A stretch of DNA of 64,000 nt from Eledone cirrhosa (taxonomy: Eukaryota). Under the pieces are notes generated by a model, which saw nothing but the letters and a program-made list of their open reading frames with translations, was not told where the DNA came from and made no database searches. Position numbers and translations under genes: made by a program. Each line of letters begins with the position of its first letter. Positions within the stretch are counted from its first letter, which is position 1. The stretch covers positions 13,888,001 through 13,952,000 of the forward strand of contig OZ024741.1 in NCBI GenBank assembly GCA_964016885.1, in the 5' to 3' direction. Positions 13,602 through 60,914 of the stretch are shown here, piece by piece.

Positions 13602-16063
13602 CTGGAGCAGGCCTGTAGGCAGGAGGAGAGTAACATGGTGGTGGAACAATAGGGTGGAGGGGTCAATTAAGGCCAAAAAGCAGGCTTGGAAAGTATGGCG
13701 GGATGGGGGAAGTAGAGTAGACTATCAAGTGGCCAGGAGGGAAGCTAGGAGAGAAGTGTACTTAGCAAGAAGGGAAGCTGAGGAAAGAAAGTTCAAGCAT
13801 GTTCTACAACGCGATGACCAAAAACGTGAGGTGTTCAGGATTGCCAGGCAATGCGTCAAGGAAAACCGTGATATTGTCGGGGAGAAGTGTGTACTTAACG
13901 ATGATGGCATACTTGCCATCACCGACACTGATAAGAAGGTAGCTTGGAAGTGTCACTATGAAAGGCTACTAAATGAGGAGAATAAATGGGAGAAAGACAG
14001 TCTCCCCCTTATCGACCCGATAGAGGGACCAGCAGTGTTAGTCGAGGGGAGTATAATAAGTAAGGCAATCAAGGATATGAAGACTGGTAAGGCGGCTGGG
14101 CCTTCGGAAATAGTTGCTGAGATGCTGAAGGCATCTGGCACGGTGGGACACACCATGGTCACCCGCATAGTTAACCAAGTCGTACAGAATGGGGTTGTTC
14201 CGAAGGACTGGCATAGCAGCATCATCGTTAACTGTTATAAGGGTAAAGGAGACGCCCTAGATAGGAGTAACTATAGAGGCATTAAATTAATCGACCAGGT
14301 CATGAAGGTCACGGAAAAAGTAATAGCGCAACTAATCAGAGAGAGAATTGATCTAGATGAAATGCAGTTCGGGTTTGTGTCAGGCAAAAGCACCACAGAC
14401 GCTCTTTTCATAGTACGACAACTACAGGAGAAGTACCTAGCTAAAGGTAAACCCCTCTACTTAGCTTTTGTCGACCTGGAGAAAGCCTTCGACAGAGTCC
14501 CCCGCTCCATTATCTGGTGGGCTCTTAGAAAACTAGGCGTTGACGAATGGCTTGTGAGGGCTATACAAGCCATGTATAAAGAAACAGTCAGCAAGGTTAG
14601 AATTAACAACGAATATAGTGAAGAGTTTAGCGTAAAAGTTGGCGTCCATCAGGGCTCTGTTCTCAGCCCCCTACTATTTATTATTGCCCTTCAGGCTATA
14701 ACAGAGGAGTTCAAGACAGGCTGCCCATGGGAACTCCTATACGCAGACGACCTGACACTCATAGCGGAATCAATGGCCGAGCTAGAGAAGAAATTCCAAA
14801 CATGGAAGCACGGCCTAGAGTCAAAAGGACTTAAAATTAACCTGGCTAAGACCAAAGTTCTAGTTTGTAGGAAAGAAAACAAGGCGGCGGTCCCTTCTGG
14901 GAAATGGTCGTGCTCGGTATGTAGGAAAGGCGTAGGTAGAAACTCCATCTTATGTCCTAAATGCAAAGTATGGGTGCATAAAAGATGTAGTGGGATCACA
15001 GGTAAGCTAACTAAGAACATAGACTTTACATGTGGCCGGTGTTCTGGTGCAATAAGTAGCAGCAAGTGCCCACAAAATACTAGCTCTTTCAATTGCGCAG
15101 AGGGTTCTATAGAAATAGTGGACAGCTTCCGTTACCTGGGCGATAAAATCAGCAGTGGGGGAGGGTGCTCTGAAAGTACTGTAGCTAGAGTCAGAACTGG
15201 TTGGAAAAAGTTCAGAGAGCTTATACCACTATTAGCTGCTAAAGGGTTCTCCCTAAAAATGAAAGGCAGGTTGTACGATGCCTGCATACGAACAGCAATG
15301 TTGCATGGTAGTGAGACCTGGGCATTGTGTGCAGAGGATATACGCAGACTAGAGAGGAACGAAGCTTGCATGCTCCGCTGGATGTGTAACAGTAATATAC
15401 GTGAACGGCAAAGCATAAACGAACTAAGGAAAAAATTAGAGATAAGAGGGATCAGATGTTGTTTACACGAGAGAAGGCTGCGTTGGTATGGACACGTGAT
15501 GCGCATGAAAGTCGATAGCTGTATTACAAAGTGCAGGGCAATAAAGATAGACGGTAGCCACGGAATAGGCAGACCTAGAAAAACATGGGATGAGCTGATA
15601 AACTCCGACCTCACACACTTACACCTTTCCAAGACAATGTCACTGGACCGTGACCTTTGGCGGTACTCAGTAACAGAGAAGACCCGCCTTGCCAGTAGGC
15701 ATCTCTAACAAAATACACCCCTCCCGCCGCCACCCCCACCCCATCCACACCACCCCGTTCTATGTAAAGTTATGTTGGTGCCGCGCCATCCAGGCCGAAA
15801 CAAATGAGATCGTGTAGGTGTCACGACAAAAAAAACACACAGTCCACGCTGTAATGTGGCCGTGTAGGCAACACGGTAAAAACCTCCCAGACCCACACTG
15901 TAAATGTGGTTGGTGTTAGGAAGGGCATCCAACTGTAGAAAACCTGCCAGACAGTCCTATGCGAGCAAGACAATCACTCTTGCCTCAAGTGGGACTACCC
16001 CCGTCCAAACCCATGCAAGCGTGGAACACGGACGTTAAACGTTGATGATGATGATGATGATGA
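13602..16063 (+). mobile_element. RTE LINE family A, 5'-truncated, young
   Basis: Uninterrupted RT ORF, 3' UTR and (GAT)n tail. Confidence 0.95.
13654..15708 (+). CDS. RTE reverse transcriptase with internal PHD-like zinc finger (no endonuclease, 5'-truncated)
   Basis: 684-aa open frame with RT motifs (QFGF, DLEKAFD, QGSVLSP, YADD, FRYLG) and an RRLRWYGHVMR..GRPRKTW C-terminus. Confidence 0.9.
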   Translation: MEGSIKAKKQAWKVWRDGGSRVDYQVARREARREVYLARREAEERKFKHVLQRDDQKREVFRIARQCVKENRDIVGEKCVLNDDGILAITDTDKKVAWKCHYERLLNEENKWEKDSLPLIDPIEGPAVLVEGSIISKAIKDMKTGKAAGPSEIVAEMLKASGTVGHTMVTRIVNQVVQNGVVPKDWHSSIIVNCYKGKGDALDRSNYRGIKLIDQVMKVTEKVIAQLIRERIDLDEMQFGFVSGKSTTDALFIVRQLQEKYLAKGKPLYLAFVDLEKAFDRVPRSIIWWALRKLGVDEWLVRAIQAMYKETVSKVRINNEYSEEFSVKVGVHQGSVLSPLLFIIALQAITEEFKTGCPWELLYADDLTLIAESMAELEKKFQTWKHGLESKGLKINLAKTKVLVCRKENKAAVPSGKWSCSVCRKGVGRNSILCPKCKVWVHKRCSGITGKLTKNIDFTCGRCSGAISSSKCPQNTSSFNCAEGSIEIVDSFRYLGDKISSGGGCSESTVARVRTGWKKFRELIPLLAAKGFSLKMKGRLYDACIRTAMLHGSETWALCAEDIRRLERNEACMLRWMCNSNIRERQSINELRKKLEIRGIRCCLHERRLRWYGHVMRMKVDSCITKCRAIKIDGSHGIGRPRKTWDELINSDLTHLHLSKTMSLDRDLWRYSVTEKTRLASRHL

Positions 16064-16619: not shown

Positions 16620-17930
16620 ACAGAAATTATTTAAAGGATTTAGAAGACCCTGTGGTTCTACGGATGCTCTTATATTTAGTATAGAAATTTATCTTGCGTA
16701 AAATTTATTTAATACATTGGGAGCATCTACATTTTAGAGTAGTTTAATTACATCATTTGTTTATATTTATGAAGAAGGTTTAAAAGAAAAAGTTGAAGGA
16801 ATCGAAAGATTTATCGTCAGGTTTCATACATTAATTAAATTTCTTAATTAATTATACTACATTTTAAATTTATATTTATATTTAAACGTTGAGTTCAATC
16901 TATGTCTGCAGCAACTGAATAAATTGCTCCTTAGATTAAGGGAATTTTTGGATTTTAATATAAAGAATATCTCCTCCATACAGAGATCACATGTCTCAGA
17001 TGAGGAATTAAAAGGAATCCCTCTTGAGACAATATTCCAAAACATCGAATACCCAACATTATCACGTTTAAGTTGCCAGAGTAAGCTTGATAGCGAAGTT
17101 GAAGATTTTTTGTTTGGATCTGTGAAAGAATTCTTATGATTATTGAAGCGAAGTTTAAATTCTGTCGAGGTGGAACCAACATAGTTGAAAGAATTTAAGT
17201 TAGTTTTAACATTACAATTGTATATTATATTTTTAACTAAGCAATTGTTATTTAACGGACATTTAGATTTATTTCTACAGTTACAGTTATTTAATTGAAT
17301 ATTGTTTGGGTTATTATTGGTATTTTGGTTAGGTTTTAAATTCCTATTATTAATTCTGTTAATATTTTGTGCTAAATTTTTGGTGGACGAGTAAGTTAAT
17401 TTTATAGTATGTCTATTAAAAATTGAGTGATATTTATGTGTTCTAGGGAAGCGTTTGTCAAGAGCATTAAAGAATAGTTTAGCAATGTGGGTTTTAATAT
17501 TTCGTGAGAAAGGGGGGGCAAACCATATTATATTTCTAGTTCTATTTCTTTTCCGGCTTTTGGAATTATTGTAATGTTTTCTATAATGTTTTCTTTTTCG
17601 TCAAAAATATTTTTATTAGATGAAATTCTTGAGATTCGTTCTTGAACAGAGTTCACTATAGTATTTTTAACAGATCTGGGGTGATTAGAGTTAAAATTGA
17701 CATAATTCAAGTTTTCATTTAGTTTGTGAAATGGATAGTGAAGACATGTGTTGAGATTTAGTGTTACATCTAGGAAATTGACTATTCTATGGTTATTCTC
17801 TATTTCTATTTTTAGATTAAGGTAATTAAAAAATTGTATAATTTGTTTCCTTTTTCTATTTAGTTCAGAGTTATTATTTTCAATAAGTAAAAGCATGTCA
17901 TCACGATATAATCCTCCGGTTACACCTGGT
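16620..17930 (-). mobile_element. Penelope-like element 2 (same type as PLE1, diverged family), 5'-truncated
   Basis: GLYRDD, VNFLDVTLNL, SNHP, WFAPPFS, CNCRNKSKCPLNNNCL, YVGST, CDLC, SCCRH; stop at 16857. Confidence 0.88.
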
Positions 17931-17940
17931 ATATATATAT

Positions 17941-18513
17941 ATAAAACATGAGAAGAAAGAGGTATACTGCGTGGTTGCACATGGGTTACATATTATAAAA
18001 TTAGTCCCTCATCAGTGATTTGCCAACCATCATTGGTATTTCATCGCATTAAAAATCATATACCTCAGGTTGGTGCGAGCAATAACTAAAAAAAGCTATT
18101 GGGACAAGTGAGTCGCGTAAAGCGAGTGAGACAAGTAAACAACATAGAAGGATGAAAGCAAACCGAAGATAGGAAAAAAAACAATCAACATGGTTATCCA
18201 GTCAGCATAAGCTGGGTGGATTTCATGAGCGTTCAGAATACAGACCATCCGACCTGAGTGAGATGTGAGAAAGAAAGAAAGAGCCCCACTACCAACGAAA
18301 CGGGAGGAAGTGAGAAGGGGAGAAACAGAGAGTGAGTGAGTGGAAGTGCGAGGAAGAGGTCAGTCGAGAGAAAGTGTAACTGGCAGAGGGGGCGAAAGAA
18401 GGTGAGAGAAACAGAGAGAACGGGGGAGCAGTAAGAGAGAAAGAGAGAAACAGACAAACGCAGCCGAGGTAAATATGTATAAAAAACATGAGAAGAAAGA
18501 GGTATACTGCGTG
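17941..18513 (-). mobile_element. ~570-bp non-coding element with ~31-bp terminal direct repeat and structured RNA core
   Basis: aaaacatgagaagaaagaggtatactgcgtg at 17943-17973 and 18483-18513; (TA)n on both sides. Confidence 0.6.
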
Positions 18514-19085: not shown

Positions 19086-19109
19086 CATATATATATATAT
19101 ATATAATAA

Positions 19110-19578
19110 TAATGGAGCTGCGGCGCTGCAAATGAGTTACATATGAAAAAGTTTGTCCTCATCAGTGGCCTTTCAACCGTCGTAGGCATTTCGTCGCTTT
19201 AAAGGCCATATACCTCAGGTTGGTGCGAGCAACGGCTAAAAAAAGTCGTTGGGACACGTAAATAAGGGGGACGCTAGCGTAAACAAACAAAATGGTTTAA
19301 GCAACAGAAAGTGATGAAGAAGAAAGAAACAAGTCCCAGATTTCTATGAATATAAATTCGGTGGAATCGTGAACGAGAGAATAAAGACCATCAAACCTGG
19401 TTGAAATGTGAGCAAGGAAGGAATTTCGCACAGGTCTAACGGGAGGAAGAAGGGGTCTGGTCTGCGAATTCGGTAAACATAAGTTCTGTGAAGTAGCAGA
19501 TGAGAGAGAGAGAAAAAATTCATACCGGCTTGGCCAAGTGCCCGCGAGAAAAGGATTACGGACAGGTCAAACGGGAAT
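19110..19578 (-). mobile_element. Diverged relative of the 17941-18513 element
   Basis: Conserved blocks including catatacctcaggttggtgcgagcaa and gtc(c)ctcatcagtg. Confidence 0.6.
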
Positions 19579-19597
19579 ATATATATATATATAGAGA

Positions 19598-19899
19598 GAG
19601 GCACATGGCTTAGTGGTTAGAGCATTGGCCTTGCAATCAAAAGGTTGTGAGTTCAATTCTCAGACCGGGTGATGTGCAAGATACTTTATTTCACATTGCT
19701 CCAGTTTACTCAGCTGTAGAAATGAGATGATAGGGACTGGGGTCCCTATCATTCCACTGCAAAGTGGTCGTGGAGGTGCCACGGCTGTAAATGAGGTTGG
19801 AAGGGCATCCAGCTGTAGAAATCAAGCCAGAATCAGTTCCCATCCCACCCTTGCAAGCAGGGAAAAGTGGACGTAGGAATGAAATGATGATGATGATGG
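19598..19899 (+). mobile_element. tRNA-derived SINE with RTE-like 3' tail
   Basis: A box TGGCTTAGTGG, B box GTTCAATTC, tail shared with the RTE 3' UTR, (GAT)n end. Confidence 0.85.
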
Positions 19900-19986
19900 C
19901 ATATATATATATATGTGTATATATATATATATATATATCTATGTATATATATATATATATACATATTTATATATATGTATGTATAT

Positions 19987-40835: not shown

Positions 40836-43710
40836 AGTGGTAGTGTTGATGGCGGCAGTTGTGGTGGTCTTGGTGGTGGTAGTGGTGGTCTTGGTGGTGG
40901 TAGTGTTGATGGCGGCAGTTGTGGTGGTCTTGGTGGTGGTAGTGGTGGTCTTGGTGGTGGTAGTGTTGATGGCGGCAGTTGTGGTGGTCTTGGTGGTGGT
41001 AGTGGTGGTCTTGGCGGTGGTAGTGGTGGTCTTGGCGGTGGTAGTGGTGGTCTTGGTGGTGGTAGTGGTGGTCTTGGCGGTGGTAGTGGTGGTCTTGGCG
41101 GTGGTAGTGGTGGTCTTGGTGGTGGTAGTGGTGGTCTTGGCGGTGGTAGTGGTGGTCTTGGTGGTGGTAGTGGTGGTCTTGGTGGTGGTAGTGGTGGTCT
41201 AGGTGGTGGTAGTGGTGGTCTTGGCGGTGGTAGTGGTGGTCTTGGTGGTGGTAGTGGTGGTCTTGGCGGTGGTAGTGGTGGTCTTGGTGGTGGTAGTGGT
41301 GGTCTTGGTGGTGGTAGTGGTGGTCTAGGTGGTGGTAGTGGTGGTCTTGGCGGTGGTAGTGGTGGTCTTGGCGGTGGTAGTGGTGGTCTTGGTGGTGGTA
41401 GTGGTGGCCTTGGCGGTGGTAGTGGTGGTCTTGGTGGTGGTAGTGTTGATGGTGGCAGTTGTGGTGGTCTTGGTGGTGGTAGTGGTGGTCTTGGTGGTGG
41501 TAGTGTTGATGGCGGCAGTTGTGGTGGTCTTGGTGGTGGTAGTGGTGGTCTTGGTGGTGGTAGTGTTGATGGCGGCAGTTGTGGTGGTCTTGGTGGTGGT
41601 AGTGGTGGTCTTGGTGGTGGTAGTGTTGATGGCGGCAGTTGTGGTGGTCTTGGTGGTGGTAGTGGTGGTCTTGGTGGTGGTAGTGTTGATGGCGGCAGTT
41701 GTGGTGGTCTTGGCGGTGGTAGTGGTGGTCTTGGTGGTGGTAGTGTTGATGGCGGCAGTTGTGGTGGTCTTGGTGGTGGTAGTGGTGGTCTTGGTGGTGG
41801 TAGTGTTGATGGCGGCAGTTGTGGTGGTCTTGGCGGTGGTAGTGGTGGTCTTGGTGGTGGTAGTGTTGATGGCGGCAGTTGTGGTGGTCTTGGCGGTGGT
41901 AGTGGTGGTCTTGGTGGTGGTAGTGGTGGTCTTGGTGGTGGTAGTGGTGGTCTAGGTGGTGGTAGTGGTGGTCTTGGTGGTGGTAGTGGTGGTCTTGGCG
42001 GTGGTAGTGGTGGTCTTGGTGGTGGTAGTGGTGGTCTTGGTGGTGGTAGTGGTGGTCTTGGTGGTGGTAGTGGTGGTCTTGGTGGTGGTAGTGGTGGTCT
42101 TGGTGGTGGTAGTGGTGGTCTTGGTGGTGGTAGTGGTGGTCTTGGCGGTGGTAGTGGTGGTCTTGGTGGTGGTAGTGGTGGTCTTGGTGGTGGTAGTGGT
42201 GGTCTAGGTGGTCTTGGCGGTGGTAGTGGTGGTCTTGGCGGTGGTAGTGGTGGTCTTGGTGGTGGTAGTGGTGGTCTTGGTGGTGGTAGTGGTGGTCTTG
42301 GTGGTGGTAGTGGTGGTCTTGGTGGTGGTAGTGGTGGTCTTGGCGGTGGTAGTGGTGGTCTTGGTGGTGGTAGTGGTGGTCTTGGTGGTGGTAGTGGTGG
42401 TCTAGGTGGTGGTAGTGGTGGTCTTGGCGGTGGTAGTGGTGGTCTTGGCGGTGGTAGTGGTGGTCTTGGTGGTGGTAGTGGTGGCCTTGGCGGTGGTAGT
42501 GGTGGTCTTGGTGGTGGTAGTGTTGATGGTGGCAGTTGTGGTGGTCTTGGTGGTGGTAGTGGTGGTCTTGGCGGTGGTAGTGGTGGTCTTGGTGGTGGTA
42601 GTGGTGGTCTTGGCGGTGGTAGTGGTGGTCTTGGTGGTGGTAGTGGTGGTCTTGGCGGTGGTAGTGGTGGTCTTGGTGGTGGTAGTGGTGGTCTTGGTGG
42701 TGGTAGTGGTGGTCTTGGTGGTGGTAGTGGTGGTCTTGGCGGTGGTAGTGGTGGTCTTGGCGGTGGTAGTGGTGGTCTTGGTGGTGGTAGTGTTGATGGT
42801 GGCAGTTGTGGTGGTCTTGGTGGTGGTAGTGATGGTCTTGGCGGTGGTAGTGGTGGTCTTGGTGGTGGTAGTGGTGGTCTTGGTGGTGGTAGTGGTGGTC
42901 TAGGTGGTGGTAGTGGTGGTCTTGGCGGTGGTAGTGGTGGTCTTGGCGGTGGTAGTGGTGGTCTTGGCGGTGGTAGTGGTGGTCTTGGCGGTGGTAGTGG
43001 TGGTCTTGGTGGTGGTAGTGGTGGTCTTGGCGGTGGTAGTGGTGGTCTTGGTGGCAGTTGTGGTGGTCTTGGTGGTGGTAGTGGTGGTCTTGGTGGTGGT
43101 AGTGGTGGTCTTGGTGGTGGTAGTGGTGGTCTTGGCGGTGGTAGTGGTGGTCTTGGTGGTGGTAGTGGTGGTCTTGGTGGTGGTAGTGGTGGTCTTGGTG
43201 GTGGTAGTGTTGATGGTGGCAGTTGTGGTGGTCTTGGTGGTGGTAGTGGTGGTCTTGGTGGTGGTAGTGGTGGTCTTGGCGGTGGTAGTGGTGGTCTTGG
43301 TGGTGGTAGTGGGGGTCTTGGTGGTGGTAGTGGTGGTCTTGGTGGTGGTAGTGGTGGTCTTGGCGGTGGTAGTGGTGGTCTTGGTGGTGGTAGTGGTGGT
43401 CTTGGCGGTGGTAGTGGTGGTCTTGGTGGTGGTAGTGGTGGTCTTGGCGGTGGTAGTGGTGGTCTTGGTGGCAGTTGTGGTGGTCTTGGTGGTGGTAGTG
43501 GTGGTCTTGGCGGTGGTAGTGGTGGTCTTGGCGGTGGTAGTGGTGGTCTTGGTGGTGGTAGTGGTGGTCTTGGCGGTGGTAGTGGTGGTCTTGGTGGCAG
43601 TTGTGGTGGTCTTGGTGGTGGTAGTGGTGGTCTTGGCGGTGGTAGTGGTGGTCTTGGTGGCAGTTGTGGTGGTCTTGGTGGTGGTAGTGGTGGTCTTGGT
43701 GGTGGTAGTC
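40836..43710. repeat. 21-bp minisatellite GGTGGTGGTAGTGGTGGTCTT with 60-bp higher-order variant
   Basis: Direct reading, ~2.9 kb. Confidence 0.95.
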
Positions 43711-53450: not shown

Positions 53451-53813
53451 ATGTGATGCTAGAGAAGTGATGCAGACATGTTTCTAGTATCAATATATGT
53501 AGGACTTTAGCCTAGATTTATGTAACTGATGATGATGATGATATATTATATATCATTTTACAGCTGTCTTTCCATATATATATTGGTGTAATGGTAGCAC
53601 AGTGGTCTGGATAACCAAAGATGTGGGTTCGACTCCCATGTACGGCAACACTCATCTTTTTCCATTTCTCCGAGGGTTATAAACCCCACTATCAGGCTAG
53701 AAAATTTCTTTAGTCTAAAATACGGTGAAAGCTTATAATTTCTAATTTCTAATTTCAAACTCGCGCACCATTTCAAAAAACATACTTACATGTTTACATT
53801 TATAATTTGCTTG

Positions 53814-60370: not shown

Positions 60371-60914
<544 letters not shown>

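Follow-up and report, generated by a model that had tools for sequence, protein, structure and literature searches.

Hammerhead ribozymes in Penelope pseudo-LTRs and in retrozymes are of type I (PMC4209133; Li et al. 2026, preprint 10.64898/2026.07.22.740005), and the G10.1-C11.1 pair of stem II is highly conserved in hammerheads (PMC4209133). Type-SGC non-circularly permuted hammerheads (HRIMA-1 and its variants) cleave in vitro and are described as known only from metatranscriptomes, with no examples found in the genomes of known organisms (Eckert et al. 2023, PMC10085705). In the crystal structure of an active hammerhead (Zhan et al. 2024, PMC11300833, PDB 8YDC), stem II consists of the G10.1-C11.1 pair and a helix formed with a foreign strand. 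Naiads are Penelope-like elements that insert in (TA)n and are reported to be without canonical hammerheads (Craig et al. 2021, PMC8557442), some of them being flagged only as 'HHR_core' or 'HHR_half_core' in the metadata sheet of that work; the 5' truncations, partial tandems and inverted copies that they display have been described for Penelope-like elements in general (PMC8557442, section 6).

We analyzed a hammerhead-like motif present in two copies in a 64,000-nt stretch of contig OZ024741.1 of Eledone cirrhosa (hereafter, the window). Both copies are on the minus strand: copy 1 (18004..18105) lies near the fixed 3' end of the non-coding repeat F1 (17944..18513), which comprises one unit of ~540 nt and a terminal repeat of ~30-45 nt, and copy 2 (19154..19255) is likewise close to the 3' end of the non-coding repeat F2 (19105..19577), a 5'-truncated copy of a ~620-nt unit. 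The two repeats are also on the minus strand and flanked by (TA)n, their given ends being approximate. An earlier note on this DNA had reported that the two copies match almost without gaps; indeed, positions 18007-18109 align with 19157-19259 at 80% identity over 103 nt with 0 gaps, and the 21-nt stretch that the note called invariant has exactly two matches in the window, where 0.01 would be expected. The description of the host elements as otherwise diverged holds in part: BLAST aligns only the motif-bearing end, but F1 and F2 are related families, with identity in a global alignment of whole units ranging from 52 to 82% outside the motif and from 74 to 86% inside it. Copy 2 differs from most F2 copies by two substitutions, which cost one pair each in stem II and in the linking helix.

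The motif contains the complete hammerhead core (the letters CUGAnGA, GAAA and UH), flanked by stems I and III. Read 5' to 3', its first half is made up of the 5' strand of helix P1, hairpin A, a 5-6-nt strand, a linking-helix strand, a stem III strand and UH; the middle, of a stem I strand, a short linker, the partner of the 5-6-nt strand, N11.1 and GAAA; and the end, of the stem III, linking-helix and stem I partners followed by CUGAnGA and the P1 3' strand. In copy 1 the 5' strand of P1 (18101..18105) pairs with 18004-18008, the bases right after CUGAnGA. Hairpin A (18080..18101, 7-8 bp), a predicted arm of the four-way junction, has three of its eight pairs changed on both sides; it is present where the earlier note had drawn it, with one A-C mismatch in copy 2. 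The 5' strand of the stem II replacement (18074..18078) pairs with 18044-18048, the bases that immediately precede N11.1 (18043) and GAAA, and the 5' strand of the linking helix, or 'I' helix (18068..18073), pairs with 18023-18028 and adjoins stem I. The helix CAACC/GGUUG, once proposed as an alternative pseudoknot, exists and covaries, but is no alternative, as it nests with stem III and both can form together. The 5' strand of stem III (18060..18064), ending in U16.1, pairs with 18035-18039, and that of stem I (18053..18058) pairs with 18016-18021. The latter is the former stem B, which had been likened to hammerhead stem I; it is located as claimed, and four of its six pairs are changed on both sides. 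The stem III pairing and CUGAUGA likewise occupy their proposed positions in both copies. The core letters G12-A13-A14-A15.1 are found at 18039..18042, and C3-U4-G5-A6-N7-G8-A9 at 18009..18015. By analogy with hammerheads, cleavage is predicted at 18058..18059, between H17 (18059) and the first stem I base (18058), and between 19209 and 19208 in copy 2; the position after GGUAUA, singled out before, is the hammerhead cleavage-site position.

The blocks containing the site (S), GAAA (G) and CUGAnGA (C) follow each other in the order S, G, C, which differs from the circular orders CGS, GSC and SCG and agrees with the view that the motif is outside types I-III. A normal stem II is missing, as had been suspected: the strand after CUGAnGA and the strand before GAAA are complementary for one pair at most. 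A stem II of the G10.1-C11.1 type could comprise at most one pair in F1, F2 and a third family (F3, below), and none in three other loci (L342, L365 and L431). In the window copies G10.1 is able to pair with N11.1 or inside P1, and position 10.1 has the same choice between 11.1 and P1 throughout F1-F3. In F3, L108, L342 and L365, the copies as parsed have a closed junction with no unpaired base, where 10.1 opens P1 and the 5' strand supplies the partner of 11.1; for L342 and L365 the four-way junction is perfect, and A10.1 and C11.1 cannot pair. Across 17 parsed copies the linker has 2-7 nt (3-4 nt in the window families) and the linking helix 4-11 bp. As a normal stem II is lacking and a putative replacement helix is present, we class the motif as a variant that would act in the manner of a hammerhead and not as a standard member of the class. 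An older family with decayed copies (L150, L152, L145 and L137) apparently lacks hairpin A and would have a three-way junction at stem II.

The closest described relatives share different parts of this design. Type-SGC hammerheads (PMC10085705) have the same block order (site, GAAA, CUGAnGA) and the full core, the same short linker between stems I and II ('typically three' nt there, 3-4 nt in the window families), and an extra helix joining stems I and II, which is found in the window motif too. In type SGC, however, the strand after CUGAnGA is the partner in stem II, and the block is assumed to be unbreakable, whereas the window motif breaks block C: the bases following CUGAnGA pair with the 5' end to form P1, and a hairpin sits in the junction. 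The window motif is moreover genomic and resides in an animal retroelement, while type SGC is metatranscriptomic (PMC10085705). With the pseudoknot-containing hammerhead (PMC11300833) the motif shares a stem II of at most one pair, its replacement by a helix with an outside strand, and a further helix beyond. That ribozyme has the ordinary block order, with G10.1-C11.1 on one continuous loop and an A-minor linker (PMC11300833); in the window motif, by contrast, the blocks are permuted non-circularly, the backbone departs after A9 or 10.1, and 10.1 and 11.1 are often unable to pair. The pairing of loop II with the helix IV loop and the pistol-like connectivity described in PMC11300833 do not occur in the window motif, which is connected differently. 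What is new here is the SGC order with stem II made from a separate 5' strand, encoded in a genome and in an animal retroelement; the SGC order itself has already been published. A search of the full-text literature, with few subscription journals in its scope, found no link between Naiads and permuted hammerheads and no split stem II.

The repeats are present in thousands of copies in the 3.0-Gb genome of the same species. In a DNA search of it, first-look candidates numbered 587 for F1 and 1332 for F2 (40 scored for each). F3 was represented by a 15-mer with 1436 exact genome matches (control, 0), and a 22-mer common to F1 and F3 had 3218 matches (control, 0). The units of F1, F2 and F3 are 534, 621 and 530 nt long, respectively, and contain one ribozyme-like motif each. 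We surveyed 79 insertions out of the first 100 listed matches of the F1/F3 22-mer. The TA run begins 64-67 nt past G8 in 66 of them; 16 of the 79 are in tandem arrangement, with arrays of up to five units; and the 5' ends fall at scattered positions, although some called ends (a few) are alignment breaks. Inverted 5'-truncated copies are also present. This retroposon anatomy with a fixed 3' end at (TA)n identifies the minus strand as the sense strand. Naiads (PMC8557442) similarly have (TA)n targets, 5' truncation, and tandem and inverted copies, but the window elements are protein-less: no ORF with an N-terminal GIY-YIG endonuclease and a reverse transcriptase was found in the units, which makes them at most non-autonomous relatives of Naiads. 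The repeats are also like non-LTR retrozymes in being non-coding tandem units with one ribozyme motif per unit and a link to Penelope elements; retrozyme hammerheads, in contrast, are type I, often minimal and dimer-dependent, and the descriptors used in retrozyme searches were of type I and unable to match the window order (PMC4209133; 10.64898/2026.07.22.740005).

The fold was further analyzed in an alignment of 16 hand-picked distinct copies of F1-F3. Among its 34 pairs, 96.5% of the cells are paired, compared with 22-47% in slid controls; the copies being related, the shuffle control is lenient. Ten of the 34 pairs show a double-sided change, and these are spread over five of the six helices. 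Covariation of the linking helix amounts to one C-G/G-C swap in 6 of the 16 rows, and P1 has no double change among these close families (two rows of the alignment are misregistered there), while all six helices vary between distant families. The claim of a conserved, covarying and pseudoknotted RNA with a hammerhead core is borne out. Minimum-energy folding of the copies did not recover the knot, crossing helices being beyond the program. At the gathering and E-value thresholds, Rfam gave no ribozyme family and no hammerhead match over the motif in the window; no family reached its gathering score at either copy. Weak snoRNA and miRNA matches were put down to chance.

A genome search for the pattern site-GAAA-CUGAnGA with a different stem III yielded 241 matches against five for the reversed pattern and uncovered older families with rewritten stems; patterns of this kind impose the core letters on what they find. 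A further family with the full core (L108) was met in flanking DNA and not through the core pattern; on the plus strand of this locus, near position 940, a second CUGAnGA is found on the same strand as the family. Joint parsing of 22 loci, drawn from the window, families of the same genome and metagenome contigs, resolved 17 copies in 15 of them, and the seven loci without a full parse are all decayed or truncated. In these 17 copies at least two pair types are seen at all positions counted in stems I, II and III, with the exception of the invariant U16.1-A15.1. Among the families N7 takes each of the four bases, whereas in the parsed copies H17 is always A, C or U. A descriptor score of at least 45 was reached by 161 of 166 candidates and by none of one in the reversed sequence (784 kb); as the descriptor was run on loci fetched for the motif, only the reversed control is informative.

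A pattern requiring only GAAA...CUGAnGA had 71 matches against 17 in the control, and these were rejected as new families, being mostly F1-F3 mutants and unrelated repeats. A short motif from the end of an octopus Naiad was discarded as count evidence (11 matches, 100 in the control), a few of the 11 loci being decayed family members. Among the matches listed for metagenome contigs, nine of 119 pattern loci had a stem I of at least 4 bp, four of them with the wider fold, whereas in viral contigs stem I was found in none of the 120 pattern loci listed. Judged by eye, the four fold-bearing metagenome contigs resemble coral Naiad entries; no Naiad ORF was found beside the metagenome copies.

Inspection by eye of the part of the PMC8557442 supplement covered here identified the six-helix order near the 3' end of at least 10 of 55 Naiad consensus entries: Naiad_Obim, Ovul, Esco, Amil, Aacu, Anas, Naiad-2_Movir, Plae, Bfor and one Clytia entry. 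These ten span four phyla; stem I of the Bfor entry has only ~2 bp, and the Esco entry contains mismatches. A standard 10.1-11.1 pair is possible in none of the ten ends, and in the Naiad consensus sequences the motif sits on the ORF strand. In the same supplement (file S5, parts 13-16) six entries, three of them from Nippostrongylus, seem by eye to be of type CSG, with CUGAnGA ahead of the site and GAAA last, and to have a stem II of the ordinary kind, and in entries of parts 17-18 from the spider and ostracod region the strand following CUGAnGA is again in a separate helix.

In the genome of E. cirrhosa, Naiad-like reverse-transcriptase pieces are decayed (93 matches with open frames of up to 321 aa) and by eye resemble the octopus entries. 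An intact Naiad ORF was not found in this genome, nor was the motif found downstream of 30 decayed Naiad reverse-transcriptase pieces; a profile match at L195 was rejected as a Naiad tail motif because it lies upstream of such pieces. By eye, the end of Naiad-1_Movir holds a twister-like stretch. Judged by eye from the consensus ends, the window motif is likely one of Naiad-type Penelope-like retroelements. The young families, whose copies are mostly 85-98% alike, probably depend on enzymes from a different Penelope-like element, since the Naiad-like reverse transcriptase is decayed and the motif was not found behind the 30 pieces.

One Penelope-like element is an immediate neighbor of F1, outside the motif (16857..17928, minus strand). 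It is 5'-truncated and frameshifted and has a C-terminal GIY-YIG-like domain. Its family is young, with 62,741 first-look candidates in the same genome and ORFs of up to 750 aa (L205-L239), and carries an ordinary type I hammerhead in the terminal repeat; as a carrier of the scrambled motif it was rejected, having 0 copies. A lone CUGACGA after GAAA is located ~40 nt past the stop codon in this family, with no evident stems. Pfam named none of the three Penelope-like pieces. Elsewhere in the window, a 21-nt tandem repeat (40850-43709, ~137 copies), flanked by TA repeats and probably a minisatellite, is open in several frames on both strands (Gly-rich on the plus strand, Pro-rich or His-rich on the minus strand). 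There are tRNA-like heads of short interspersed repeats at 19600-19900, 53584-53639 and 60544-60607, with Rfam tRNA matches at the last two, and, by eye, a fragment at 14000-15700 on the plus strand that resembles the reverse transcriptase of non-LTR retrotransposons and is akin to ORFs in L002 and L010.

We consider it probable that the motif is a variant of the hammerhead with the SGC order, in which a predicted four-way junction rebuilds stem II, that its carriers are non-autonomous and of the Naiad type, and that it cleaves itself. We regard activity as likely because the stems are rewritten but the whole core is kept, including a free N7 and an H17 other than G. Against it, the highly conserved 10.1-11.1 pair of hammerheads is impossible in L342, L365 and the Naiad consensus ends. 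In the proposed structure, the helix preceding GAAA would stack on the G12-A9 pair and take the place of stem II, P1 would stack on hairpin A, the core G-A pairs would form the fourth arm of the junction, and the linking helix would tie the stem II replacement to stem I. The RNA would cut itself after H17 as a single copy; cuts in successive tandem units would free unit-length RNAs of 530-620 nt, which may circularize, as proposed for retrozymes, and an autonomous Penelope-like element would provide the reverse transcriptase and the endonuclease that copy them into TA repeats.

The 5' ends of the insertions bear on cleavage. Only three of the 79 insertions have a 5' end that is at most 1 nt away from the predicted cut. 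In a closer count by eye, covering 100 listed of the 685 F1/F3 ends between -4 and +10 and setting two internal deletions aside, 23 of the listed ends retain the stem I strand in full (6-7 fall exactly at the cut and 11 are ambiguous via TA flanks), while 31 are at +7 and 15 at +9, where there is TA microhomology. TA microhomology dominates the truncation ends near the predicted cut, and a circular template would be expected to hide a 5'-end peak at the cut. The 5' truncations of F1 and F3 cluster at TA microhomology 7-10 nt past the predicted cut, where a linker separates stem I from the stem II strand.

The lack of a clear peak at the cut is one of the observations that would agree with a hammerhead descendant that does not cut, or cuts negligibly, and is kept as a 3' recognition fold for the reverse transcriptase. 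So would the fixed distance from the 3' end, the locking of the strand after CUGAnGA in another helix, and the weak cutting in vitro of minimal Penelope hammerheads (PMC4209133). We regard this as unlikely: the core letters, a free N7 and a non-G H17 persist across rewritten stems, by eye in four phyla, and we infer that a recognition fold would not need such a core pattern. Still less probable is a ribozyme that works only as a dimer, by pairing of tandem units, or as a switch in which P1 opens and a normal stem II forms. The tandem arrangement of 16 of the 79 insertions, the dimer action proposed for animal Penelope hammerheads (PMC4209133) and the two pairing options of 10.1 in F1-F3 (11.1 or P1) could be understood in this way, but all helices close inside one copy, including a stem III that has 5-6 bp in the window motif and 5-13 bp among the parsed copies, compared with the dimer-forcing 1-2 bp (PMC4209133), and a normal stem II is impossible both in cis and in trans, the bases after CUGAnGA and before GAAA forming one pair at most. 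Neither a dimer nor a switch is needed to explain the motif, and these readings, offered among others by the earlier note, are given a low rank.

The same data leave hardly any room for the idea that the features arose by chance or belong to a DNA-level repeat, or that the plus strand is the functional one. Plain folding, by a program that cannot draw pseudoknots, gave no striking result, with slightly better z-scores on the plus strand (-2.4 and -2.9) than on the minus strand (-1.7 and -1.8), and there is a weak match to a box C/D snoRNA (snR66, 25 bits against a cut-off of 65). On the other hand, double-sided changes occur in five helices, single changes in stems I-III yield G-U on the minus strand, no parser match of at least 45 appears in reversed sequence, and the motif is on the ORF strand of Naiad consensus sequences. 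Chance, repeat features and plus-strand function are thus largely refuted already.

Beyond the self-cleaving variant itself, we find a broader reading probable, with somewhat less assurance: the hammerhead would be divisible into four movable blocks where three were recognized, animals would encode an active non-circular form with stem II put together at a four-way junction, and Naiads would carry a scrambled set of ribozymes driving thousands of retrozyme-like parasites. As part of that reading and held with the same assurance, the Naiad set would include the form described here in ctenophore, cnidarian, acanthocephalan and cephalopod elements, type CSG in nematode ones, and twister in others. 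If this is true, CUGAnGA and the stem II strand would be separable, contrary to what has been assumed, and current descriptors would miss a whole group of ribozymes. Non-circular permutations, represented by a few hundred sequences from metatranscriptomes, would then extend to animal genomes, with thousands of copies, and the puzzle that Naiads, unlike other Penelope-like elements, were said to lack hammerheads would be answered.
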